Notes under the pieces: generated by a model | Told to the model about the DNA's origin: nothing | Database searches by the model: none | What the model saw: only the letters and a program-made list of their open reading frames with translations | Shown: piece by piece, positions 5,565-45,853 of the stretch | How positions within the stretch are numbered: position 1 is the stretch's first letter | Layout: each line of letters starts with the position of its first letter | Made by a program: the position numbers and the translations under genes | Assembly (NCBI RefSeq): GCF_024521635.1 | Contig: NW_026250435.1 | Span: forward strand, 1 to 64,000 | Source of the DNA: Tricharina praecox | Lineage: Eukaryota | Length of the DNA stretch: 64,000 nucleotides | Direction of reading: 5' to 3'

Positions 5565-7311
5565 TTAGAAACTGCATCCTGCCTCGTAGCTCTCGGGGTA
5601 AACGAACGTTGCTCCCGGTTGACTGAACAGTAGTTAGTGATGTTTGCAAACGTAAAGAGAGAGCGCCTAACTTATTATAAGTCAGTCTGACCAAGCTCTT
5701 GCAAGCACGACTATACGTAGGCTGAAATCAATTCGTCAGCACTCGCCCTCTCCCACGGGTGACAGCTCGTGAGTGACCTACCCAGTTCGGCGCGTATTTC
5801 CTCAAGCCCTGCTTCGGATCCTTCGCGAAAGCAGCCCACGCACCCTGAATGTATGCACTACTGTCGCGCTGTTCCTCCGATGCGCCGTCGGGATCATACG
5901 TCCCAAACACCTGTGGGATCTCGGCGCCATGCGACGCCACTCCCGGCATGGTGAAGTTCCCGAACCTCATCGGGAACGCACCAAAGTATCTGTACTGCCA
6001 AGTAGGCGCGATCCGCGCATGGTACCGCGCCGTTTGGGCCGCAGGGCACGTGAAGGTTTGTAGCGTCGAGAACGAGCCGGTGGCGGCTGCCTCGGCGGTG
6101 TTGTTTACCGCTAGGAGTTCCTGGTCGTTCGAGCCGACGAGGAGCGGAACCTTCGCTCGGCTGCCGGATTCCAGCAGCGAAAGGTAGTTGGAAAACACGG
6201 TGCCGTTGTCCTGGGCCGGCGTAAAGGTGAGATTGTTCGCCGACATGGTGTCGCGGAGGTACTTGGCTGGGACTTGGCGCATACATTCCAGCTCCTGCGC
6301 TGCGCTCTGGTTGCCACAGTCGACTAGCCGAGTGAGGTTTCCCCAGCTCTCGCCGAAGGGCAGCCCGAGAACGCCGATGTCGGTGAGCGAAACAGTTCCG
6401 GATTGCATGATTGCCCCCGCGATGATCGGGTCGTCCTTAGCGTAGTAGAGGTAGGTGTCTGTGGCGGATCCCCCGGCTGATTCCCCAAAGAGCGTGATTC
6501 TTTTGGGATCACCACCGAAGGCGGCGATATTGTCGCGTGTCCACTCCACTGCACTGCGGACGTCGAGGAGACCCGGGTTTTGCTGTTTAGCGGGTAGACC
6601 GCGAGAGCCGGGGTAGCCGAAGACGGCGAGACGACTGGATTAAGATCAGCGAGATTCAGGAGTAACTACAGTCGTTGGTGGCGGTGGTGGAGCGCACTAG
6701 TTGAAGGAAACCACAATGACGTCCTGCTGGTCTCGCACGAGATTGGTGCCATCATACACTGGCGTGAAGGATCCACCGAATGTGAACCCACCGCCATACG
6801 TCCAGAGCAGTACCGCCGCCGGGCCTTTTGACCGTTTCTTTGTCGGCGTCCAGACGTTGATGGAAAGCTACACATCCTCTTAGCAAGGCCAGACATACAG
6901 CAGTAGGGCTCGGGGCATGCGGCACAAACACAATCCTCATCTTCTAGGGGTGGCTTCGCCACAATCTCCAGTTCCGGGGGAATCATCGCGTTGTAGCATG
7001 TAGGACCGAACTTGCCCGCGTCGATCGGCTCTATCCACGGGTTCGGCTTCGCAGCGGGCGCAAAACGTAGCCTGCCGATCGGAGGCGCGCCATATGGAAT
7101 ACCTAGGAACTCGCGCACCGCTAAAGCGGATTAGCCCATACAGCCACGGATTGAGGAGACCTGGAGACATACATGCCGGGGCGGTAGCCGCGTAGTGTCC
7201 GAGCACTGGTCCGTTCGTGGTGGGTACGAGGAGCTCGGAGCTGTTGGCGCCCTGCGCCGTGGTTGTGCTCACGACGGCGAGAGAAAGGATCGAGAGAAGA
7301 GTGAAGCGCAT
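5565..7311 (-). CDS. Secreted type-B carboxylesterase/lipase (COesterase family), 5 introns
   Basis: Signal peptide MRFTLLSILSLAVV. Spliced motifs VREFLGIPYGAPP, EDEDCLSINVWTP, YGGGF oxyanion hole, YRLAVFGYP, catalytic GESAG and SHGAEIPQVFG. GT..AG introns with branch points restore the frame to ...YEAGCSF* at 5565. Confidence 0.93.
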
Positions 7312-13730: not shown

Positions 13731-16700
13731 AGTTCAGCTCGCCAGCCACCTTTCCCCCCCACTACCCGTATAGGTCGAGTGCTTTAGTCTGCAATCACAT
13801 CCTGCTGTCGTGTTCTCGCCCCTCCCCCTCTCGTACGGCGCGCATGAGGCGAGTACCGGTACATACATATCTATGTACATGATGATCATGTCTTTCCCTC
13901 TGAGTTCTGAGCTGGCGTGTCTTTCAGAATTCTCTCGTCAGTCGTGAGTCGTCACGATAGCGGAAATTTGATGATGCTATTCTGGTACACATCACGGACA
14001 TTGCATTGTTGCAACCGTGTTGGAGCTTTGGTGGCGCCCGTGAGCAGTTCCGGTTGGCGGATATATACGCAAGGCGGAATTGCACCTGCCACAATGGACT
14101 CTGGAGAAGGTACTCACATACATACCCAGCACTTCCGGATTCCGCTTTGGGACGCAACATGAACTCCCCGAGGTTTCCACCATCGTCGTGCACATCGATG
14201 CTGATACCGTATGCTATGATAGGCGTCACCGCGAGTGCATTTCCTCTTTTCTTTTCTGTGTTTTCTTTTTCTCTTCTCGTTTTTTTCTCTTCCTTTCCTT
14301 TCCATTCCCTGTACGTTCACACGGGAAGGAAGGAACTTGGAAGTGAATGACCGGCACACACACGCTGGAAAGGCTGGACGTTGCACTGACTCGCACCCGT
14401 CGCACGCACGCACACATAAGGGTGAGGCCAATAGGTGCCTGGCGAGATGATCACGACATCTTTGCAGGAGACTCAGATGGTTATTATCTTCCCTCCAGCT
14501 CCCGGCACATCCGGGCCGCGCATATGTAGAGTATCTTTGGCCTGCGTTCTCGACCCAAAGCCAACCACCTCAGCGAGTCGGACTTCAGTCAAAGTGTCTC
14601 TCGCCGTGGGAGCGAGCGATGGTCGCACGGCACGACTGTCGGTGCCGTGCCTTCCTTCGCTTGGGTTTGATCGGTTACGGCACACAGTCTGGTACTCTGG
14701 CTCGGCCCAACGTAACGTAACATAACGTGACCTTCTGCGGTCTCGGATATGTATCATATCATACAACGCATCGTGCTGGAGAGACCTCTGCAGTATGTAG
14801 GTAGGCTGATGGTATGGGTACTAGTACCTTGCAGCTCTAGTTTGCTGCCGAGTTTTCCGGGTGAGAAATCGGCGAGTTGTCGAGTCGGTTGGTGTCTTTC
14901 CATGGTTCAGTCTTGCATGTGTGTGTAAACTCGAAGGGGAATAAGGAATCAGCGTGCGAATGCCCGAAGCAGAATAACAGGCTCGGAGCGAATTGAGTTG
15001 ATTTTCAGGATCTGGAAAGGCTTCCACGGTTCGCACTTCGCGTTCGCTCCCGTACTGGTTCTCTCGAAGTGGTGGGTGTGTGGGTGGATCATGGTGGTGG
15101 TGGTGGTTGTGTGTGTGTGGTTCGGTGGTGCGAGATCCGATGGCGCGGGATTCGGTGGTGCCCATGTGTGCGACCACGGCCATGGACTCAAGAATACTAT
15201 GGTGCTACGGTGCAACCATTGCAGCGTCGGTATTTAGAGTTGGTTGGACACGACCAGCTCAGGTGCAAGTTCCAATACGAACGCGAGAGAGACCTGAGCT
15301 GGACCAGGAACAGCTGCACGCCGCACTAGTTACCCGCCCACTACTAAAGTACCCGCAGCAGCCCTGCCCAACCAATTGCACAGCCCCAGCTTCCCCCCAC
15401 ATCCACTAGAGTACCTACTCTACACACCACGATGTCCTCTCCCCCGCAGCGTGCAGACATGAACCAACGACTGAAGAGTAAGTGGTTGCTACTAGTAGTA
15501 CGTTCAGCACGCAGTTTCTCCCCAGGCACCCAGCACCTTCTGACTGCTCTAGGTACCGTACTAGCATTGCACGAGCGGATCCGAGCGGATCCGCATGCGG
15601 ACGGAGCGAGCGTGACGATGCCGGCACCACCACATGTCCACAGCTCGAGAACCGATGCCACGACACATCACCACTCACCAGAGTACAACTTGTCGTTGTT
15701 GTTGCCTGAGCTCGGCTTGGCCCGAGAATGCCCGGAGGTCTGGCTCTGGTTGTCCGTTGCGATTGGTTGCGTGTGTGACGTATTGGCCGTATTGGTCGAG
15801 ACTTCAAAGCATTCCCGCCGAGAAAGCTCACCAACCAGACGTAGACCCCACTCGAATTTCCCGGGGACGAATGAAAGAGTCGAGTGGTCCCGAAGGGGGA
15901 GGTGGGGAGCTCTCTGGAGGGTCTCTGGAGTGCTCTGGCGGGAGTAGGTATCGAGTACCTACTAGTACTCTACTCTACATACCGATCCCACCCGTGCGGA
16001 ATCGGCATTGACACCGGAAATCCTATGGCTAGTTCTTTCTCTGTGGGCAGCGGGGGGGGCCTTGGGCTGGGCAGTGGGCGCGAGTGGCTCGCGAGAGCGA
16101 GAGAGCGAGAGGTACATACTACTACTATACGGATACCCCCAGCAGTAGTTAGAGTGGCCTTAAGGCTTAGGCCTGCTACGAGTGGATATTTCGCTTAGCA
16201 TAGCATCTAGCAGAGTGACTGGTTGGTTGAAGCCTGGAGGCCTAGTCATCTACTGGGTAGTATAAACCTAGTACCCAGGTATGTAGGTACCGCAGTAAGA
16301 TACCGTATCGCAGGCCAGGAACCGGGATGCGGATGGAGAAGGCTGACGGCGACTGACTGACGGACTGACTGTTCCCCAGCCACAACGAGAAGGCACTGTT
16401 CCTGATACCTCGCTTCCCAGATTCAAATAAACCACTCTATTACAGAGCAAGCTGGGGGCGTGGATTTGCCGCCGCAAGCCGAACTGGATAGTAGGTACCT
16501 ACTGCACCGTACATAGGTACATATTACTACATTCCACCTGAAGATTACGAGAGACCTTATTCTAATAGTATCCTAGTGGGTACTATAGAGAAGCGAGTGT
16601 GAATTGAAAAGGGGTTCCAGAACAGTGGATGGGGGGTGTTTGTTCTCCACCTGCTATGATGGTCATTCGAGTGCTGCTTTTTCCGTCCGATGGCATCATC

Positions 16701-17751
16701 TAGGTACAGTCGGTGGGTAAGTAATCGAGAAACGTGAAAATAAGTGACCAAGTACCTAACTAATGGCAGATAGGTATAGTCGAGTGCGGTAAGTAGCCGG
16801 ATAACCAGCCTCGAGGATTCTCTCGGTTTGCTTTGCTTTGCTTTTGCTTTTGCTTTTCTTCTTTTCTTCTACGGTTACTATTTATGCCAGGAGCACTATC
16901 AGAGTCAACCGTGTTCGCCAAGTGCACTGCGCACGGCATGGCCGGCCAATACCAAATGTGTTGAAATTGCGCGGGAGAAAAAAGCACAAGCGTTGATCGA
17001 CACGCGCTGGGTGGGTGGGTGGGTGGGTGGGTGATCGACCAGCCCAGCTACGGCCGTGCCACCACACATCCCCCCACCACCAGTGACTACCAAGCGTCTG
17101 GCCGGCCACTCTGCCGGATGGCTGAGAATCATGATTCATGAACCGTCAACAACAACAAAGGCTGTGCTTCTGCTTCTACATAACGCACGAACGAACGAGA
17201 CCTGTGATGGACGTTTCTGTTGTCACCTTTGATCGCAGTACTGATGAGTCGTTAGCTTCCGGTAGCGGGAGGGGGGCATTGATTCTACCAATCGCGGCGT
17301 GGGCAGGCAGGCATCGGGGAACGATTTAGGGCTCCCAGCAGCCGAGACACAATCAATAATCAGCTTTCCCGTGTCTTGGTTCTCAGGGGAGCAAACTGCA
17401 GAGATATGTGCATCTAATTCTGGCAATCATCATCAATCGACATGGGAGGGCGAAGAACATGCAGGCCACTTGGACTGCCTGGAGGCTAGGCAGGTGAGAA
17501 TCACTGCTGACGGACGAGGGGGGCGGCGAAGTGGAAGAATTCTTTCCTCCCGCAGACAGAATGATGCCGGCCGCTCATCTCAGTAACCACCCAGAGGTAG
17601 CCCCCACCTCCACTCAGCCCAGCCCAGTATCTCGGCATGTGGGTTAGCTGTGGCGGTGGGCTGGCAGTGGTGGTAGTGCAATTAGCTACTATCCACCGAC
17701 AGCTGGCGATAGCGGCGTGGATTGTATGTGCATCTAGAGAGTTGGATATCG

Positions 17752-17757
17752 TATAAA
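17752..17757 (+). promoter_or_regulatory. TATA box of the Tyr/Lys/Thr repeat gene
   Basis: TATAAA 160 bp upstream of the ATG, followed by a CT-rich tract and a CAATCATG start context. Confidence 0.6.
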
Positions 17758-17911
17758 GACAGACCTCACTCCCCCCAACTCAATCTTCTTTCCTCACCCC
17801 GCTCACCATCGCTAATACATCCTCCTGCCTCCTCCTCTTACGACTTCATCTACTCTAATAAACTCTCCCGCCTAATACCAGCTCCCCCCCCAAACAACCA
17901 CCACCGCAATC

Positions 17912-18559
17912 ATGAAGTTCACTATCGCTTCCGTCGCTGCTATCTTCATCCTCCAGGCCGCTGCCACCGCGGTCCCCGCTGCCGATGCCGAGATCGTCCA
18001 GCGCGCTCCTGACGCCGAGGCCGCCGCCGACTACTACGAGCCCAAGTACAAGGTCAAGACCGTGACCGAGTACAAGTACAAGTACAAGACCGCCACTGTC
18101 ACCGACTACAAGTACAAGTACACCACCGTGTACAAGAAGTACCCTGTCACCGTCACAGACTACAAGTACAAGTACAAGTACACCACCGTGTACAAGAAGT
18201 ACCCCGTCACCGTCACCGACTACAAGTACAAGTACACCACCGTCTACAAGAAGTACCCCGTCACCGTCACCGAGTACAAGCCCAAGTACAAGACCGTCAC
18301 CGAGTACAAGACCAAGGACTCTTACCCCGTCACCGTCACCGTCACCAAGACCAAGGACGCCTACCCCGTCACAGTCACCGTCACCAAGACCAAGGACGCC
18401 TACCCCGTCACCGTCACCGTCACCAAGACCAAGGACGCCTACCCCGTCACCGTCACCGTCACCAAGACCAAGGACTCCTACCCCGTCACCGTCACCAAGA
18501 CCAAGACCGAGACCGACTACAAGACCGTCACCGTCACCGCCGAGAACAAGCACTACTAA
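17912..18559 (+). CDS. Secreted Tyr/Lys/Thr/Val tandem-repeat protein, 215 aa
   Basis: Signal peptide [20 protein letters not shown] and an acidic pro-like segment, then DYKYKY(KY)[12 protein letters not shown] x3 and D(A/S)[11 protein letters not shown] x4 plus a partial copy. Codons are almost exclusively C/G-ending. Confidence 0.93.
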
Positions 18560-21500
18560 GTGCATGTATCTCGCCCTCTTCCGGCGAGATCCGAGCCCAT
18601 TCCTTCCCTTCGTTCTTGGTGGGAGTGAAATCCTGAGGGTAGCCGTCTGCATATGCATCATCATTCGGCCTTCTTTTAGTGTTTCCTCTCCCATCTCGAG
18701 TCAAGTTTCACTCGGAGGGTTTTTTTCCCCCCTAGGACATTTGGGTTTCTGGTTTTTCTTTCGGGGGGCACGGATAATTTCGCGAGTTTCCTTTTTTACG
18801 ACGACGTTTTTCCTTTTCTAGTCTTAATGTCTGGTTCGTTTTTACGTGTTCGTGGGGTGCAGGGAGTAGTGAGGGGAGGAGAGGGGTATCTCTATGGTCA
18901 TGAGGCAGGCAGGATTTTTCTTTGGTTTCGGGTACTTTCTGGTTGGGCGCGCGCTCTGGTGAAAGCTGCAGCTGCTGCACACAGGCGGAGGATACGAACG
19001 GAAGGGGGGAAAACTGGAAAATCTGCGATAATTTTAATACATTGGGGCCTTTCTACAAACTTCTGATTCCCGTGACACATTGCTTGTGACAAACCATACC
19101 ATTACTTATTTAGTATTTGCCTGGCTGAACAGGACTGCTTTCACTCTTTCTTATTTCTTTTCTTCATGGTTCGGAAATAGGTATGATACATATTCCACAT
19201 AGGTTCCGCCACTGTCAACTGTCCAGAAGCCCCGAGGAGGAAGAAGAAGAGGAAAATTATCGCAGCAGCTAGCTGTCAGCTATTATTGTCCTGGCCGGGT
19301 GGTGTTTTCTCATTCACTTCACTTCACTTCCCATGATATGACACGTTCGTGTTCATGTTTGCTCATTACGAGGCTGAGCTGCAATCCCTATGCCCTACTC
19401 TATCCATCCCCCAGCCGTGTCCCCGTGTCCCCGTGCAAACCATACTCGCGGTATATACATACGTATGACAGTATGACAGACTGACTGTATGACAGATAGA
19501 ATGTATCTAGATAGTTTGATAGGTAGTAAGTATAGCCGCACACATGTCGAAATTCAAAAACCAAATCACGTCGTCGAGCCAACCAATCATCTCGTCCGCA
19601 CGCTGTAGATATGTCGTGCAAAACATCCCAGCCCAGCCCAGCCCAGCCCACTGAACCCAGCTTAGCCACCCGGCAGCGCGCCGTCCGGGGTCGTGGGGTG
19701 GAAGAGCTGACACACACCCTCACACACACTCGCATCAATAGTAATTCCTCGCACCAATAAGAACCTCGCGCACGACAGACAGGAAAACAAACCTGCACGC
19801 CCCATCCCTCACCCCTCACTAACCACACACCACCAACCACGCACCACGCACCCGGGTCCCGCCTGCACCGCACCGCGCTGCAGATTCCTGGAGAGAAACT
19901 CAGGAACGCGCAGGAACGAGCGGCGAGCCTGGGTGTCATACATACATACATACCGTACATGGTCTCGCTTTATTTCGCCCAAACCGTTCGAACTTCGGGT
20001 GACATCTGCACTGCTGTGCCGGAATACGGTATGGGACAAACCCCCCGTCGGCAAGGCAAGACAAGGCAAGCTGGCAACCGAAAAAATCCTGCAGACACTG
20101 GGCTCTGGACACTGGAGAAAGAAATTTTGCGAAGTTTGCGCACATCTACCCCTCACCCACGGACCCCGCTCGGCGCTTTTCCTCCTCCTGCGGCGGCGCC
20201 CTCCCAGTTCATCCGAACAAGCCGAGGAAGCGCACTTCTACTATTATCTATCTACGGAGCGGTGACGCGGTGGCGTCCTGGTTCATCCTTCCGAGTACGG
20301 GTACATGTGTACATACTATACTTCGGGCGGCGGACGTTCGGTTCGGGTGGAATCTGCACTTTATGTAGAGACTAGAGGATACGAGGCTGGCTGGCTGCCA
20401 ACAAGCGGGCTGCGCCGTGTGGGCGTTCCGATGAAGGCCGGGGGCGCGTGATCGTGGATACTGGGTAGGGGTTCTACTATCTACCGTATTCTAGAGATGT
20501 GCTTATGTAGAGTAGTGGGGGCGGTTGATTGATCTTTGGGGGCGTTCTATTTCCGGTACATAGATGATGCCATGATGGACCATGGTCGTTGGTGGCTGCG
20601 GCGCGGACAATAGTTGCAACTTGCGCGCGTTTTGGGAAGTTGGCTGCTGGCTGCTGGATTGATAGATAACCACTCACATACACACGGGAAAGTGTAGGTA
20701 CCGGATGTGCTCTACTTCCGTCGACTTCAATACTTCACGATCCCGCACTTCACGGTCTCCACAATTTGCCCCTTGTACCGTACCATCGAGCCACCATCGC
20801 TTCCACCATTTCCAAGTTCCACCACTTCCACCACTTCCACCACTTCAATCACTTCCACCACTGCGAATGCGAACGATACCTACTGCCTAGCACCGGCATC
20901 GCGCGGGACAGATCGTCTTCCGGGACGATGATCGGAGCTGGATCGGGTCCGCAAATTGAATAGCGGGGACGGATGGAGCGGCTTGGCCTCTGTCGAGAGT
21001 CGACAGTCGAAAGCCACCGGTGATCGGTCCTCCGCACTGTGATACCTATGGTTTGGTAGGGTGCAATGAGCAGGCGGATTGGTGGCCGGATTCAATAATC
21101 TGTCACCACGTCGATGTGATCATGGGAAAAAGGTTTCCGTCACTGCCGACAGATGGGCACCTGTATCTATAGGACTCTCGATTTATTTGTTTCTAGCTAT
21201 GTAGCTACCGTACGCCGTCGTCGGAATAATACCTGGGTAGGTATGCAGTCATGATCGGACAGGACAGGACCTGTGTGCCCCGAACTTGTCCAACCGCGGA
21301 GGGCGGGGAGGGGGATTGGTTTCCATATTATCTATGTAAGATTTTGGAAAATTCCCCGCAGTTCGAATTGGGGATTCTGGGGATATACAATAGGCAGCCG
21401 CCTGGATTCAAGGAATCTCCCTGCACTGGCCCCTCCTCTCCACTCCTCCGTCGAATACCGCCTCTGCCGCACTATCCGTTGGCTGACACTATCCCCCAAA

Positions 21501-24299
21501 TTTTGAATCTGGGCTGTAGCCTGTACATAGAGTAGTGCTTGCTTCCTTTCTTCCTTCGCGTGCTGCCTGGAGCCTGGCGAAGGAGCTGGCTGGGTATTCT
21601 GTGTCCATATGTACGTAAGACGCCGACGCTGCGATGTGTGAGTGTCAGGCTTTCGTCGCTGCGATATGTGAGTGTCAGGCCGACTCTCGACAAGTTGTCT
21701 CGTTGATCGACACACCCCTCCTCCTCCTCCTCCTCCGGATCTGGCCTCCACGGATTCCACGCCAAGTGATCGGGGGATCATGGATCTTCCACGATGGTCG
21801 CGAACTGGCGACAAGCGCGGATGATGATGAGGGTCTTTCGCGAAAACGAGGTCGTGTCGAGTTGTCGGGTACCGTATGTAACTAGAGTAGGTGCCTTGCA
21901 AGCAGAAGTTACTAGTATCGTTCCTGTGGAAGTCTACATACATAGCTGGCATACGGATGCGCTTGTAACCGAGTACGACACGCAGTGTTTAGTGTATGTA
22001 CTCGATGGGGCATGGTTCGATCAACTGCATGCGCAGCAGCGCAGGATTCAGCCTTAAGTGCCAACTACCCACGACCGGGAGGTAGCTCGAGTAGGTAAGT
22101 GGCGTATTTGGTGATGGTGGGGGGATGGTGACTTGGCCTCGCTCGCAGGGGCCGGAACCGGACGGATCCACGCAGCCGCAGCAACTAGTTGGCGATGTGT
22201 GCGCCGTGCGGACAGCGATTTGTGGGGATACTCGACTGTGGAGCGGCATGGATGCAGTTGGAGAGGTGGTATGCCTGTGGAATTGGCCTGCCTGTCGAAC
22301 CCGCTCAGACTTCAGGAGAGGAGTTTATGGATGATTCGTTAGCGTCTGAGCGGGTTCGACAGGTAGGCCAATTCCACAGGCTTGCCACCTCTCTGGTTAG
22401 TTGCGGTGCTTCGATTGCAGAGTGTCAGTATGCATACAGCCATTCTGGACGGTCTTGGGGGATGGCTCAGTAAATACCTCGCTGTGCAAGCCGGAGAACC
22501 TGGCTGGCTGGCTGCTGGACCATCTTCTCGTGTTTACCGGGAAATCGAATGAAGAAACAACGGTAACTACCGACGTCGCCAAAAATAGACGGTCGCGGGG
22601 CGTATGTGCTATGTAGGTCGTGCCGTCGTAGCGTACAGCTGCGCATTCAATTGGATGTGTGGGTCTGCGAGAGCGAAATGCCATTGACAGGATCGTGGGC
22701 TAGAGCACCTACTACTCAGGTATCATGCCGGACACGCCCCCCGTCCTCAACTGCAGATCGGATTCGAATGTCAAAGAACAAACAAATCAAGAGAAAGAAG
22801 GAAACAACCGTCGCGCGCTGCAGGTAAGATGGCTGATGGCTGCCGATACCTATTCGCCATGTACTGTAGAGCGCATATGGTGCACGGTTGCCCCCACTCG
22901 ATTGGCACGACAACTTCCCGAGAAAGACGTGATTGTATGTACGCCGCACAGCGGCGCACATGCTCTCACTCGAGCAGCCCGAATCGAAGTGCCGGAGGTA
23001 TGTATCGGTGACCGCTTCCATACTTTCAGCACGGCGATCGGATCCGCCTAGGCCAGTCACAAGCGTGAGTGGCGCATGCCCACACATAGCTGAGCACATG
23101 TAGCCGAGCCGAACGCCCCGTTTTGTTGTTGCTCAGTTGTAGCTGATACTTACATCATTAGCGTCATGCTGGCTAGCTGGCTGGCGACGAGTGCTTCGCT
23201 CGATGGCTGGCCGGATCAGGTAGGGACATGCATACATAACATAGGCACACCACATAGTTAATGCTCCACCCATCGACAGCGTTTGCGTATATCGCTCTCA
23301 TGTGTGTGGAGACGATAAGGTGATTTGTAACCGAGTGGACAGCGCAGGGGCTGCAGTCAGGTTGAATGGCCTTGGACGATAGGACCAATCGTGAAGCAGT
23401 TGGGCATGGGGTGATTGCAGCTGTGGCCGACACGCAGGTGGCGAGCTGAACGACGACAAGCAAGTCTGTCCGTCCTTCCGTCTGTATGGGGTCTGCCAGT
23501 CTTCCATTTTTGTTTCCCTCCCTCCCTCCGCTTGCATCCAACTGGGCTATCGATCGCAAGGGCCGGATACGTTGAACCTTCAGAGGCAGGCCCCGCTTTC
23601 TGTCACTGTTCCCGATCAATTCATCTTTCCCGGATCACCCTCGCTCGATAGTCGCTGTAGCAACAATCGCCCAAGTCAGAAGCACACCGTACTTCGTTGC
23701 TGGCAGAGAGGAAACGTCAACGAGATTTTCGTGCGCTATATCCGACGGAAATCCTACAGCCATACGTCTTTCGATCCACATTTCGTCTTGCGGCCTGGGA
23801 GAATGGTGTCGTAAACTCAGAAGCACGTATAGATCATGACCGAAGAGTCGGAGATCAGGGAGACCGAAAGTCTTCCGCTTTCGATGGGCAATCGCTCCAC
23901 TCCACAGATCTGCTCCGAGACAGCTCATTAAGCTCGTGGGGTGGGGAGGGGGGGGGGTGTCGAAGGACAGTATCACTCTAGCAGCGTAAGGTGGTCTAGA
24001 AAGACGCAATCCGGCTAGGACTAGTTTGTGCTCAATAGTAAATAAGTACGGCGAACGCCCGCCCGTCATGGTGTATCATTGATGAGCTGAAACGCGTCGT
24101 TGCCAAGGATTGCGCGACACGAGTTGTGCTTCGTGAATCGTCTGTGCACATGACACGCATGCACATGCTGAGTGCCGTGCAGTGACCTTTCGGGATATCG
24201 GCGCCGAACCGATTGTGGGTTCCGGGTAAAGTGCCGCTTCCTTTGCCTAGCGAATTAAAATCGTCCGGGTCCGGATGCTGCTCACCCACGGCGTCACTG

Positions 24300-26300
24300 A
24301 TGTCTCGGCTTTAAGCCGCCGCAGCGTAAAGACTGCAGTCCGGCAAGGCGGACTACCGGTACGGGGGCTCGATGGAAATCTTCGAGCGAGAGCCCCGCGA
24401 GCATCACCTGACTCCGTCTGGCGGTAAAACCCTTATGTTTGGCATGTCTATTCCGGCCCCGGCAGTTGGATCCGTCCACGAGAAGCCTACGGGCAGCCCG
24501 TCCAGTCTCGGGCCGACGACAAAACGAGCTGGATGTATGTACAGTTGACTTCCGTGCTGCTAACATGTTTCAAAGATGGGGTAGTTCGCGTCGCCCGTCG
24601 TTCCCTTTGTCCGGCACCAAAAAAGATTTCTCCAGAAGATGGTGTCTTGCACCCCATTTGCCTTATATGTAGTCCAGAGGCCCGGAGGGATAATTGCCAC
24701 CTATACTGGCAATCCAGACTCCAACCCCGGGACCCGCCTGTGCTGTGATACTCCGCAATGCTTCCCGACATATCCGGACATGGAAATAAGCGGTGAGAAT
24801 AGATCGCGGTAAGCCAATTCTTTCACAACGACGAAATCGGTGTCGACGGAATCCATATGATGAATGAGACGTCTTGGCGGAGGCATTGTGATCAGTAACC
24901 TTCCGAGAGCACCGTGGCACATGCCCAGTTGGATCGCAAAATCGTCGCGGTGTAATCGTGGATTATTGTGATCAGTAACCTTCCGAGAGCACCGTGGCAC
25001 ATGCCTAGTTGGATCGCAAAATCGTCGCGGTGTAACCGTAGATTACCCGTGTACGGTGAAGTCTGTAAAAAGGAGGATGGGAATCCGTATCCGAGTGATC
25101 GTCCGTGTGTGAGTTGCATCCGCTGCTGACCGTTAGTCTTGAAAACCACGAAGAAATGAAGCGAGATTCTATTTATCATCGCATCGATCCGTCCATAGAT
25201 GTTCTCCCCGACCATACCTAGTGAACCCTTCCGTCTCCCTCTCAATTGCAAGCCATCCACGGAAGATGTGGGCTCCCGGAGTCTGCTTGGCGTAAATTGG
25301 GAGGACATGGTGACAACGCGGTTTCGCCAAGGTAAAAATCCGAATGTGCTGTAATCCGTGGTCGGTGCTTCCGTGTGGTGATCATGCTCAGCGTGCCTGT
25401 CGGTGCTCTCATCCGATGCTCCTGTCCGTCCCGACACGGTGCCCGGTGGAGCGCTACCGGATGTGTACCTCCACAAGAAATCCGGCATTTGCGGGAAAGA
25501 CATTATACGGATCCTGATATAAATTCGGTTGTTGTCTCGCTATGTCCTAGTCTAACGTTGCCCGCTTATTCTATTATGTAGTAAAGGGACGAGTGAGCAA
25601 TGGTCGGTAGTGTCCGCACATGATCCACCCTCCGCCCCGAGTTTAACAGTAGGGCCTTGCTGAGTTGACAATCTCCGCATGCCGCGTGATGTTTATTCGT
25701 CTACCGTAGGCCAATATGGGCCGGATAGAGGCGACGAATCCCGCCCGGCTCGGTGGGCGGGATAGTGTCGATCATATTTCCCCTTCCTCCCGATGATCCG
25801 CGTGGGTCGCACCAAGTGGCGCTTCTCTTCCATACATCGTCCTTACGTTCGGGCCCAAAACTAGTTGAATGTTGGCGATCCTAATAGGATAACATCACGG
25901 AGCTCAATCGGATCGCAGGATCGAGCAATACAAGAACAGATAAGCGCACGTCCGTGTCGATCCCGGCCATCCGCTCGTCTGGGAAGCGACAAATACGAAA
26001 TCATGGCAGAAGGTCCTCCGGAAGTTAGATAATCCGAGAGGTATGAGAAACAATGCAGATCCCGTAATGCATCAGTAGCGGAAGGGAAGGAAAGGTCTGA
26101 ACGGTTGCTCAATCGGTGAAGCTGTTCCGGAGCCGAGAGAAACCGAAGGAGGTGGATGGACGAAGGCTGTAGTTGAAGAGTGATCGGTCCATACATCCGG
26201 TAGAACGATTCCTGGGCGATATCAAAGTGTGAGCTGTGCCGGGTACGGAGAAAGTTCGAGGTGGCGGCGGCGGTTTTCAGGTAGACGTCAAAGGCCCCCG
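24300..26300 (-). pseudogene. Degenerate coding relic of unknown family
   Basis: Removing one copy of the 80-bp duplication at 24885-25044 fuses ORF 24892-25503 in frame with ORF 24701-25000. The frame stays protein-like past isolated stops, and a further fragment lies at 25861-26290. Confidence 0.4.
24885..25044. repeat. 80-bp near-perfect tandem duplication
   Basis: ATTGTGATCAGTAACCTTCCGAGAGCACCGTGGCACATGCC...CGTRGATT starts at 24885 and again at 24965, with three transition differences. Confidence 0.95.
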
Positions 26301-43215: not shown

Positions 43216-43900
43216 ATGAAGTTCCTCTCCACTGCATCTCTCGTCATCGCCGCCCTGGCCGCTCCCATTCTCGGCACCCCCGTCGAGAATCGCGGCTATG
43301 GCAAGAAGTGCCTGACCGACGAAGAAGCTACCGGAATCGTCAAGCTGTGGAGCGCCGCCTTCGGCGGCAGCGTCGAGGCAGCCCGCAAGGTGGCGGCAGA
43401 GAATATCGAGGTGTACGACAACACCGTCAACTTCCTCTTCAACATGACGATCGACACGCCGTACATCAAGGGCATAGACAACGGGGGGTCTACTACTGCT
43501 CCTCCAGGCATGGTCCAGGTGGCGTCCAGCCCCAAGCCGCACTACGACGCTAAGTTCGAGGTCATCACTATGCTGCATGATTGCGATTCCATCTCGTTCC
43601 GGTGGAGATTCGTGGGGAAAAGTGCCGGTGTCGATCCGACCTCGTATGTTCCCCTCTCTCTGTTTCTCACTGGCATTCGATTTTGGTGTTTACGGCGTTG
43701 ACTGACGCTTACTTCTACCACTATTCAGAACAAACAAGCCCGGTGACCTAATCAGCTACAACGGTATCGACTTGATGGAAGTTGACACCAAACGCAACCG
43801 CGTCACGAAAGCGTACTCGGCGTTCGAAGCCCTCAACATGCTCTACCAACTAGGTATTAAGATCTGTTTCCAGAAAGACAATCCTAATGCTTGTTTTTGA
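43216..43900 (+). CDS. Secreted NTF2/SnoaL-like fold protein, 1 intron
   Basis: Signal peptide MKFLSTASLVIAALAAPILG. Motifs CLTDEEA, HDCDSISFRWRF and, after a GTATGT..CTGAC..CAG intron, YNGIDLMEV...VTKAYSAF...LYQLG. The fold call is from motif recall only. Confidence 0.82.
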
Positions 43901-44153: not shown

Positions 44154-45853
44154 TCAGAAATTACAGCCGGACTCGTAATTCCACGGAGTTGTGAATGTGG
44201 CCCCGGGTGGCTACAAAACCGCATCAGTATCGGTGATTTCCTCGGCGCCGGCTGGTGAGACTGACTTACTTGTTGTATGCAAGCCTCACCAATGACCTCC
44301 CCATCCTATTATATGTTGGCTATCCTTCTGTCAGCACCGCGCACCTACGGTTGAACAAGGGAGGGGGCCTACCCAGCTAGGCCAATATTTCCCCAGCCCA
44401 TTGAGCGCATCCTTCGCAAATGCCGCCCACGCACCTGTCCACGATTAGTCTTGCACCGGCCGAGAGACCTCCACAACCCACCCTGAATGTATCTACTGCT
44501 ATCCTTCTGTTCCGGCAACGCACTCTCTTGCTCAAAAGTCCCAAAGATCTGCGCGACCTCGCTGCCATACATCGCATGAAACCTCGCGCTCCTAGCCGCC
44601 GGACACGTGAAGCTGTTCCTCGTAGCCAAACTCCCTTCCAGGATCTCCTCGTCATTACTGCCAATGAGTATCGGCACGCGCGTGAACCGTCCCTCTTCCA
44701 GCCGCTCCCGCGCATCGCTGAACACCGTGCTGTCATCCACGACTGGCCCGAACGTGAGCTGCACCTTCACGACGGTATCGCGCAGCTGCAATTCCGGGTA
44801 CGCCCGCAAGCACATCACCTCCGCGTACGACGCCATCGGCGAGTTGCACACCAGCGCTTCGGTCAGGTTTGCCCACGCGGAGTGATTGCCTGCCGCCGAG
44901 TCGACGATGGAGATAGTGCCCGATTGGAGGATTGCCCCGCTTGTCAGGGGGCCGGAGGCTGATGAGAAGAGGTAGGCGTCGGTTGCGGCGCTGCCCGAGG
45001 ATTCGCCGAAGAGGGTGATCTTCTTGGGGTCCTGGGGGAGTGAGCTGGTGATGACTGGGCGGGGTGGGGGGAGGGTGGGGAACATACGCCGCCAAAAGCA
45101 CGGATGTTGTCGTATGTCCACTCTATCGCTGCGCGGACGTCGTGGAGGCCTAGATTTTTTTCGTCGGAGTAGATGCCGTCACCGGGTACACCCGGAAAGC
45201 CGAAGAGGCCGAGTCGACTTGCGTCGGAGAGCGTTAGCTATCTGTCAACCGCAGATACGGAAAGCTCAGTGGTGCGGGGAAAATACTAATTAAAGGTTAC
45301 CAAAATAACGTCATCTTGGTCCCTTACGAAGGATGCTCCGTTGTATAGGGGTAGATAGGAACCTCCGAACGAAAACCCGCCGCCGTAAACCCACAACATC
45401 ACCGCGGCCTCGGATCCCCCTTCTTCAGGCGCGATGTGGAGGGCACCCACACATTGACGGACAACCTCCGCACTCGTCAGCGGTCTTTTGCCGAAACGCA
45501 AAGGGATAGCCACGTAGCGTACGCAACCTTCGGATTCTTCCGCCGGCGGAGTAAAGTTCTCAAAGTCAAAGAGCGGGGCGTTGTAGCACGCCGGGCCGAA
45601 GCGACTCGCATTCCTGGCCGCCGTCCACGCGTCCGGCTTGTCGGGCGGGCTCCACCGAAGGTTGTCTATCGGCGGCGCGGCATACGGTATTCCCGAGGAA
45701 TTCGCGAACCGTGCCCGGAGCACGCGGCGCCCAGTGGCCGAGCACCGGGCCGTCGAGAATGTTCACCAGTAACTCCGATGTGTTGAAGCCTTGTTGCGCA
45801 TCGGCGACGCTAAGCAACTGCAGGGGCAGGAGGAAAAAGAGCGTGAGGAGCAT
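44154..45853 (-). pseudogene. Type-B carboxylesterase pseudogene, paralogue of 5565-7311
   Basis: Signal peptide, VREFLG/IPYAAPP, WVYGGGFSFG, GESSG and C-terminal PGATF..YESGCNF* are present. There is a +1 frameshift near 45693, a second shift near 45410, and a deletion joining ARFHA to MYGSEVAQIFG that removes the catalytic His. Confidence 0.88.

Follow-up and report, generated by a model that had tools for sequence, protein, structure and literature searches.

An open reading frame at positions 17912–18559 (+) of the window, by which is meant the whole 64,000-nucleotide stretch of contig NW_026250435.1 of Tricharina praecox that was analysed, encodes a protein of 215 amino acids (P0001), as had been described in an earlier reading of the letters (the sequence-only reading). 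T. praecox is a cup fungus in the family Pyronemataceae that is treated as pyrophilous, or post-fire (PMC12773724, in part); the accessible text of the same source contains nothing on the 215-residue protein. The best database match of the 215-residue protein is an NCBI/UniRef annotation from T. praecox itself, the 282-residue public model XP_051335512.1 (P0002), which is reproduced exactly when a 61-nt ‘intron’ at 18226–18286 (+) is excised and the frame is thereby shifted. This model, whose product would carry a Pro/Ser/Thr/Arg tail, is the current annotation, its intron has GT..AG ends and the usual length, and the shifted frame is also open in an orthologue on a metagenome contig (L011). 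However, the intron has no branch-point motif, whilst one is present in all four of the RNA-supported introns nearby; its joint is absent from all four runs compared, in which contigs drop rare variants and a minor isoform could escape; and a contig from a soil RNA library (X4/16) is unspliced over 18209–18388, reaching from 78 letters ahead of the supposed acceptor to 102 beyond it. In the orthologue, moreover, GC3 is 0.36 for the shifted frame against 0.95 for the Tyr/Lys frame, and each of the 10 environmental homologues reads through to the stop in the Tyr/Lys frame. The donor hexamer of the supposed intron occurs 13 times in the repeats of the coding sequence. The intron of XP_051335512.1 is probably an artefact and the public model scarcely credible; the 215-residue frame is favoured because the intronless orthologue and the RNA contigs support it.

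The codon bias of this frame had been called extreme, and comparison within the window bears this out: GC3 is 0.93 against 0.56–0.83 in six other open reading frames, with Lys encoded by AAG (37/37), Tyr by TAC (32/32) and Thr by ACC (42/46). The description of the gene as ‘highly expressed’ would be a prediction from this codon bias only. A TATA-like box (TATAAAG, 17752–17758, +) lies 160 nt 5′ of the ATG and is kept, together with much of the 5′ leader, in the orthologue L011; a probable 3′ UTR (18560–19396, +), whose extent is estimated, is covered by a contig of RNA run X1 (18832–19396) with zero differences. On the opposite strand, an antisense open reading frame of 279 aa (17855–18694, −) is in register with the gene, rich in Gly, Val, Leu and Asp, and open also in L011 and in a second environmental homologue, L012; a shadow frame of this sort is to be expected from the codon bias.

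The 215-residue frame is real and transcribed. Runs X1 and X2, each from a different study, include RNA, as is seen from their spliced GT..AG joints. The coding region is covered in the two runs alike, and in X1 contigs that match exactly lie on either flank of it. The remaining runs, X3 and X4, are small-share soil runs from which no habitat is deduced. RNA depth bins over the gene lie far above those of its neighbours, and the two flanking X1 contigs reach depths of 877 and 2576 against 5–33 nearby, values into which contigs of a paralogue are summed and which cannot rank genes by expression. The gene sits in a gene-poor stretch flanked by carboxylesterase and carbonic anhydrase genes. It had been described as alone in about 24 kb, and this stands in so far as a Pfam match was found for none of the 19 other ATG-initiated frames of at least 100 aa between 7.7 and 31.1 kb (a count that omits the antisense shadow and that genes with short exons could escape); Rfam likewise gave 0 matches in 8000–31500. 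The stretch is transcribed, however, and yields spliced RNAs that look non-coding. One of these runs over 15336–16892 (+), with four GT..AG introns whose joints are present in both X1 and X2 and each of which has a branch motif; its longest sense frame is 125 aa, with GC3 of 0.50 and no Pfam match. It stops approximately 860 nt upstream of the TATA box, and another X1 contig (17156–17905) extends upstream of that box. The transcript might act as a regulatory non-coding RNA. The adhesin gene FLO11, too, has long flanks poor in genes and a non-coding RNA upstream, and the present locus resembles it in both respects.

Several further features of the window can be recorded. More spliced RNAs come from 19799–23236, with a GT..AG intron near 20464–20514, a minus-strand intron at 23143–23235 and no frame with a Pfam match. 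At 22265–22390, at the end of an RNA contig, lies a hairpin whose stem of 38 pairs is unbroken (z −15.6), which is probably a MITE-like dispersed repeat because at least nine copies at 86–100% identity are found in the genome. An 80-nt tandem duplication with a 96% match occupies 24885–25045. A frame at 43216–43701 (+) has a signal-peptide-like start and a KR site with no Pfam match, and probably represents exon 1 of a further secreted protein. Two carboxylesterase-family genes lie within the window, at 5728–7311 (−) and 44369–45085 (−), the second of which looks fragmentary.

The 215-residue protein begins, as the sequence-only reading had proposed, with a signal peptide (17912–17971, +; residues 1–20) that is likely to be cleaved after Ala20. 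The N-terminus is the only hydrophobic window of the protein (KD11 2.56), small residues stand at −3 and −1, and A18, A20 and P22 are invariant in all 11 leaders available. What that reading missed is a pro-region with two kinds of maturation signal. An acidic pro-peptide (17972–18004, +) ends in IVQR, an aliphatic-x-x-Arg site of Kex2 type at which cleavage is predicted; the Arg of this site (R31) is the sole Arg of the protein and is invariant in 11/11 leaders, with the site placed approximately 10 residues past the signal peptide in every leader-bearing member. Position P4 is Leu in six or seven, Ile in three or four and Val in one of the 11 (at the first site, Leu 6, Ile 4 and Val 1), and LxxR is a Kex2 pattern (10.1101/2020.05.27.120113, in part). 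A KR site is present additionally in three leader-bearing members. The Kex2-like site is followed by four XA/XP dipeptides, AP-DA-EA-AA (18005–18028, +), a trimming signal of Ste13 type. Such dipeptides occur in 10 of the leader-bearing members, the exception being L012, which has a plain KR site; across 10 homologues, A or P is found at position 2 of the dipeptide in 34/40 cases and at position 1 in 12/40. The orthologue L011 has exactly three dipeptides fewer, with the register kept and the same mature start, and two members carry a second site, KR-EA, that resembles the alpha-factor signal (PMC6339444, in part). A short pro-region followed by an LxxR-like or KR motif, as in pre-pro-proteins of the K2PP type, is thus present in 11/11 leaders. 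Net charge is 0 to −6 in the pro-regions and +8 to +31 in the mature chains of all 12 members. We infer, with good support from these leaders, that the protein would be processed by Kex2 and Ste13.

The predicted mature chain (18029–18556, +), which would start at Asp40 and weigh about 21 kDa prior to modification, has 176 residues, of which 25% are Thr, 20% Lys, 18% Tyr and 16% Val; these four together make up 80%, whilst Gly, Cys, Trp, Arg and Leu are absent and Ser occurs twice. Its net charge is +20, its pI 9.6, and it ends in Tyr. The two repeat blocks that had been noticed are both present. Block A (18104–18271, +) consists of three units of 18–20 residues each (residues 65–82, 83–102 and 103–120) with YKY, VYK and KK-YP motifs; the block is conserved in the orthologue. 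Block B (18323–18508, +) consists of four full 13-mers (residues 138–189; 18323–18478) and a partial unit, and Tandem Repeats Finder (TRF) reports a period of 39 nt, 6.3 copies and a score of 355. The full units differ from each other at 0–2 of 39 nt and the orthologue has a single copy of the 13-mer, so block B is read as a recent expansion. In the 13-mer all four Thr fall on one face of a strand, and this face reads P-T-T-T-T-D. Alternation of residues, which had been called strict, is strong without being strict: identity between positions i and i+2 is 0.36, against 0.17 ± 0.03 and a maximum of 0.27 in 2000 shuffles. The pairs YK and KY number 32 against 13.1 expected, with 24 of the 32 Tyr adjoining Lys; YxY occurs nine times against 5.6 expected (p 0.07), with nine YKY and three VYK; and TxTxTxT occurs six times against 0.60 expected. 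The hydrophilic character of the last 25 residues (mean KD −0.96) shows the protein to have no GPI signal, which agrees with the earlier statement.

The protein is a member of a small family for which no description was found. Among 38 database hits 17 were examined, of which nine share the leader and eight were dropped as unrelated repeat proteins; 20 of the 21 hits outside the examined set had their best stretch from query residue 62 or later, and one had none. The database yielded eight homologues of unnamed source (91–161 aa, on contigs of 901–1065 nt), and a leader pattern retrieved two more, L011 and L012, bringing the environmental total to 10. L011 lies on an 11-kb metagenome contig and is an orthologue without introns, which encodes 175 aa in the Tyr/Lys frame; among 60 codons compared with the T. 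praecox gene, 10 are changed synonymously and seven non-synonymously, and within the 6 kb of L011 compared with the window the promoter, 5′ leader and coding sequence align and nothing else does. A paralogue in the same genome (G000:C83:52482-53399, −; L007, L008, L009) encodes a protein of 284 residues and has a single canonical intron of 63 nt; its signal peptide differs, its repeats are of the same kind, and it too lies where genes are sparse, with the gene for an RNA-dependent RNA polymerase approximately 6 kb downstream. With P0002 left out as the same gene, the family comprises 12 mature chains, and T. praecox is the sole named source organism among the members found. Profile searches with full and leader-only alignments gave no new members among the 8000 candidates that each of them scored, which is weak evidence of absence. 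Within the genome, 34 loci were matched by two short patterns, none with another Tyr/Lys-rich frame, and the candidates C28:158938 and C17 proved unrelated. Two loci, L038 (G000:C21) and L044 (G000:C54), carry the same 487-aa frame, which we take to resemble an RNA polymerase subunit; its identity over the 420 residues compared suggests that the region is duplicated or redundantly assembled. For one member, P0014, the source gives the name ‘alkylated DNA repair dioxygenase AlkB’, and the sequence has no such domain.

That no known family could be recognised had been stated earlier, and the searches agree. Pfam gave nothing at its cut-off for P0001 (best E 0.58) or for the nine members scanned, a test limited by low complexity; PDB sequences gave 0 matches at E ≤ 10; and the best ESM Atlas scores, 0.86 for P0001 and 0.84 for exon 2 of the paralogue, are leads only. 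A description of the family was not found in the literature covered, outside which most subscription journals fall, and six repeat motifs searched as text matched only two unrelated mathematics papers. The readable text of the supplements to two surveys of repeat proteins that Kex2 processes (KEPs) contains neither ‘Tricharina’ nor the motifs, one table being unreadable and the other perhaps listing accessions without sequences, and the present protein is not mentioned in the accessible parts of PMC7329392, its supplement included, or of PMC3778014.

What the members share is their choice of residues. Across the 1436 residues of the 12 mature chains, Lys outnumbers Arg by 341 to 4, Tyr outnumbers Phe by 266 to 2 and Thr outnumbers Ser by 282 to 8, whilst Val (143) and Ile (22) stand against a single Leu; no such preference is seen in 2779 residues from other open reading frames of the same genome (Lys/Arg 137/168, Tyr/Phe 88/98, Thr/Ser 142/184). 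The repeat units differ among the 12 members and the residue choice is constant, which points to a need for amine, phenol and beta-branched side chains. Mature length (50–262 residues) and repeat unit vary freely. By shuffling, whose p-values are optimistic in that tandem duplication is ignored and the homologues are related (median leader identity 56%), Tyr–Lys adjacency is raised in 10/12 members (not significantly in P0027 and P0037), Tyr-x-Tyr in 2/12 and TxTxTxT in 4/12, the last being absent from 7/12. The final residue is Tyr in 10/12 members, and none of the 12 has an N-glycosylation site. The absence of Gly, Cys and Trp that had been pointed out is true of the 215-residue protein but is no family trait, as exactly two Cys flank the repeats in 8/12 members; even spacing of these two Cys in 7/8 was noticed after the fact.

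The mature chain appears to be beta-prone, whilst its specific fold and any self-association are putative. A single-sequence AlphaFold model (pLDDT 50, pTM 0.47) is solenoid-like, with strands every 12–13 residues in the C-terminal half and pLDDT of approximately 60 in block B; a model built from 12 sequences is worse (pLDDT 38) and shows long ribbons. Both consist of strand and coil only, are of low confidence and are mutually inconsistent, so that the earlier claim of a beta-rich material is upheld as a propensity and not as a fold. The single-sequence model resembles parallel beta-solenoids, namely SufBD-type proteins (Z 12.4, rmsd 3.8, 174 aligned), RsaA (Z 9.8, rmsd 3.8, 165 aligned) and curli CsgA (Z 8.3–8.8, rmsd 9.4–9.8), likenesses which, at Z below approximately 13 for repeats, may mean merely a common arrangement according to the structure-comparison tool. 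At E ≤ 0.001 no Foldseek match was obtained. In a comparison of charge with hydropathy, the mature chain falls on the disordered side (0.398 against a boundary of 0.454), block A clearly so and block B at the boundary.

There is in our view an even chance that the mature chain is a cationic, beta-prone extracellular structural protein of the wall or sheath that is fixed by oxidative Tyr(-Lys) cross-links. This reading is taken because Tyr is chosen over Phe and Lys over Arg, the terminal residue is Tyr and length varies freely; secreted, transcribed and beta-prone as the repeat protein is, the plausibility of the extracellular structural material that had been proposed is sustained. After removal of the signal peptide, Kex2 would cut after the single Arg and Ste13 would trim the dipeptides, steps that would take place in the Golgi; until then, during transit, the basic chain may be held in solution by the acidic pro-piece. 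The released chain would be largely unfolded alone, with Lys binding anionic wall polymers or surfaces, and chains could then align with their neighbours as extended beta-strands that present Tyr and Lys, or Val and Thr, on opposite faces. Extracellular oxidases would couple Tyr to Tyr, or convert Tyr to a DOPA-quinone that reacts with adjacent Lys, and the layer would be fixed without a GPI anchor. In most relatives the two flanking Cys may add disulfide closure or chaining, and in T. praecox slippage expansion of block B would lengthen the chain. Oxidases are available in the genome, with a large set of tyrosinases (32 exon matches on 13 contigs), nine multicopper oxidase matches and four PF00141 peroxidase matches at two loci; no oxidase gene lies near the 215-residue gene, the nearest tyrosinase match on this contig being approximately 240 kb away. 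Avoidance of Arg could serve just to escape Kex2 cuts, and beta-assembly could be prevented if the 44 Thr were heavily O-mannosylated.

The mature chain is best read as one that would work like extensins or mussel foot proteins (MFPs) whilst belonging to neither family. Classical extensins and repetitive Pro-rich wall proteins share with it a signal peptide, basic charge, repetition, the lack of a GPI signal, the YKY and VYK motifs and a terminal Tyr (PMC8160292, in part), and in extensins Tyr motifs at the terminus are believed to promote cross-linking end to end (PMC8160292, in part). However, classical extensins are defined by three or more Ser-Pro3-5 blocks (PMC8160292, in part), of which the 215-residue protein has none (0 Ser-Pro-Pro); it has instead a beta-branched Thr/Val backbone and a fungal Kex2/Ste13 leader, and no sequence homology to extensins was found. 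It is not an extensin, because Tyr-x-Tyr is enriched in just 2/12 members and Ser-Pro runs are missing. The analogy with mussel glue, the only one of the three drawn earlier (extensin, mussel, ice) to hold across the family, concerns the pairing of Tyr with Lys. MFP-1, MFP-3 and MFP-5 are likewise secreted, cationic, tandemly repeated and rich in Tyr and Lys, with Tyr adjoining Lys, and DOPA–Lys adjacency has a role in wet adhesion. They differ from the present protein in that it lacks Gly, has little Pro or Ser and is beta-branched, and in that DOPA here is putative; no sequence homology to them was found, low complexity limiting the test. In recombinant MFP-1, Lys/Tyr drives self-coacervation (PMC9999432, in part). 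The fungal adhesins Als, Flo and Hwp1 are also secreted proteins with Thr/Val-rich tandem repeats (PMC6023273, in part), and Ile/Val/Thr-rich cores drive the amyloid-like association of such adhesins (PMC6023273, in part); the composition of the present protein fits these beta-aggregation segments. Unlike the adhesins, it has no GPI signal, N-glycosylation site or folded ligand domain and almost no Ser, and is much shorter and strongly basic.

A more specific version of the cross-linked reading is rather unlikely: that the family is an independent fungal counterpart of both mussel glue and plant extensin, in which Kex2-activated Tyr–Lys beta-fibres would be cured by tyrosinase through DOPA–Lys chemistry into an unrecognised, GPI-independent layer gluing hyphae to soil or char.

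Four other functions can be weighed against a cross-linked structural protein. The chain might instead form a non-covalent coat or functional amyloid, with beta-fibres or a surface film in which Tyr serves for stacking and hydrogen-bond ladders and is never oxidised. The strong i,i+2 alternation and the likeness of the single-sequence model to CsgA and RsaA speak for this, as does the proposal that ice-nucleating solenoids multimerise by way of Tyr ladders (PMC12978214, in part); but the likeness is that of a low-confidence model at Z scores compatible with a common arrangement, a net charge of +20 opposes in-register stacking without a polyanion, and Phe, which is equally able to stack, is nearly absent from the family. 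We regard a coat of this kind as unlikely. It is improbable, too, that the chain is a soluble cationic binder, whether an antimicrobial or a scavenger of anionic surfaces, phenolics, char or metals, for which the acidic pro-piece would act as a safety catch. The opposite charges of pro-region and mature chain throughout the family suit such a binder, as do small size, the two Cys in 8/12 members and disorder by charge and hydropathy. Arg, Phe and Leu are common in membrane-active peptides, however, and are nearly absent here, and the free variation of length and repeat unit fits a material better than a ligand.

A further alternative is the release of short peptides. KEP and K2PP pre-pro-proteins share with the family a signal peptide, an aliphatic-x-x-Arg or KR site and XA/XP dipeptides, and if the protein were itself a KEP, cuts at KK-YP would release Tyr-rich peptides of 14–16 residues as signals or for cyclisation. 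KK followed by the XP dipeptide YP does occur three times in P0001 and four times in the orthologue, KK serving as a minor site for Kex2 and XP as a signal for Ste13 (PMC6339444, in part). KKYP is nevertheless absent from 10/12 members (it is present only in P0001 and L011), no mature chain among the 12 has KR or RR, P0014 lacks KK, the single KK of the paralogue lies outside the repeats and block B has no dibasic site. In most members, then, the processing signals are confined to the leader, with the repeats free of KR/RR, and there is no UstYa or tyrosinase cluster; at least one UstYa (DUF3328) locus was found, on a contig other than that of the gene (C61, and not C32 or C83). Altogether a KEP is highly improbable.

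There is, finally, only a very small chance that the protein binds or nucleates ice through a two-sided beta-solenoid in block B that would have Val in its interior and rows of TxTxTxT on its surface and would be lengthened by stacking. Like RiAFP, TmAFP and the InaZ-type proteins of bacteria and Mortierellaceae, block B has TxTxTxT rows in a regular 13-residue repeat with Tyr at a fixed position; the six matches, the four Thr on one strand face and the modelled strands every 12–13 residues fit such a solenoid, and RiAFP uses five TXTXTXT repeats (PMC6834126, in part). In RiAFP, though, X is small (PMC6834126, in part), whereas here it is the bulkier Val or Lys; InaZ has 20 or more 16-residue coils with TxT/SLT/YGS, and the known fungal nucleators have 23–42 such coils with YGS/SLT (PMC12978214, in part), as opposed to 4–5 copies of a 13-residue unit with no Gly, Cys or Leu in the mature chain, no conservation across the family and no PDB sequence match. 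No antifreeze protein was found among the 50 structural matches listed for the single-sequence model, which rules nothing out. Ice activity is unlikely as a family function, because 7/12 members have no TxTxTxT and the orthologue has the 13-mer once only, and the TxT analogy of the sequence-only reading falls in that respect; that the recent expansion of the 13-mer has added a flat ice-binding TxTxTxT face in T. praecox is likewise very improbable.

Set against these alternatives, the gene is a mis-annotated but genuine family member, most likely one that encodes a material protein of an already known general kind, and the family is a well-defined orphan family for which the cross-linking mechanism is proposed. 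It is nearly invisible in public annotation, where half of the sole named member is modelled in what is very probably the wrong frame and a second member is labelled AlkB. Its function can be tested directly, now that the sequence is corrected and the start of the mature chain predicted, and natural variants are at hand that have or lack the Cys pair or block B. To our knowledge, GPI remnants, Pir linkages or hydrophobin assembly hold those fungal wall proteins that have been studied best. If the cross-linked reading is true, a family of basic, Tyr/Lys-rich and unanchored repeat proteins would offer a simple four-residue design for biomaterials and would add an extensin- or mussel-glue-like route to the ways in which fungal walls are built.
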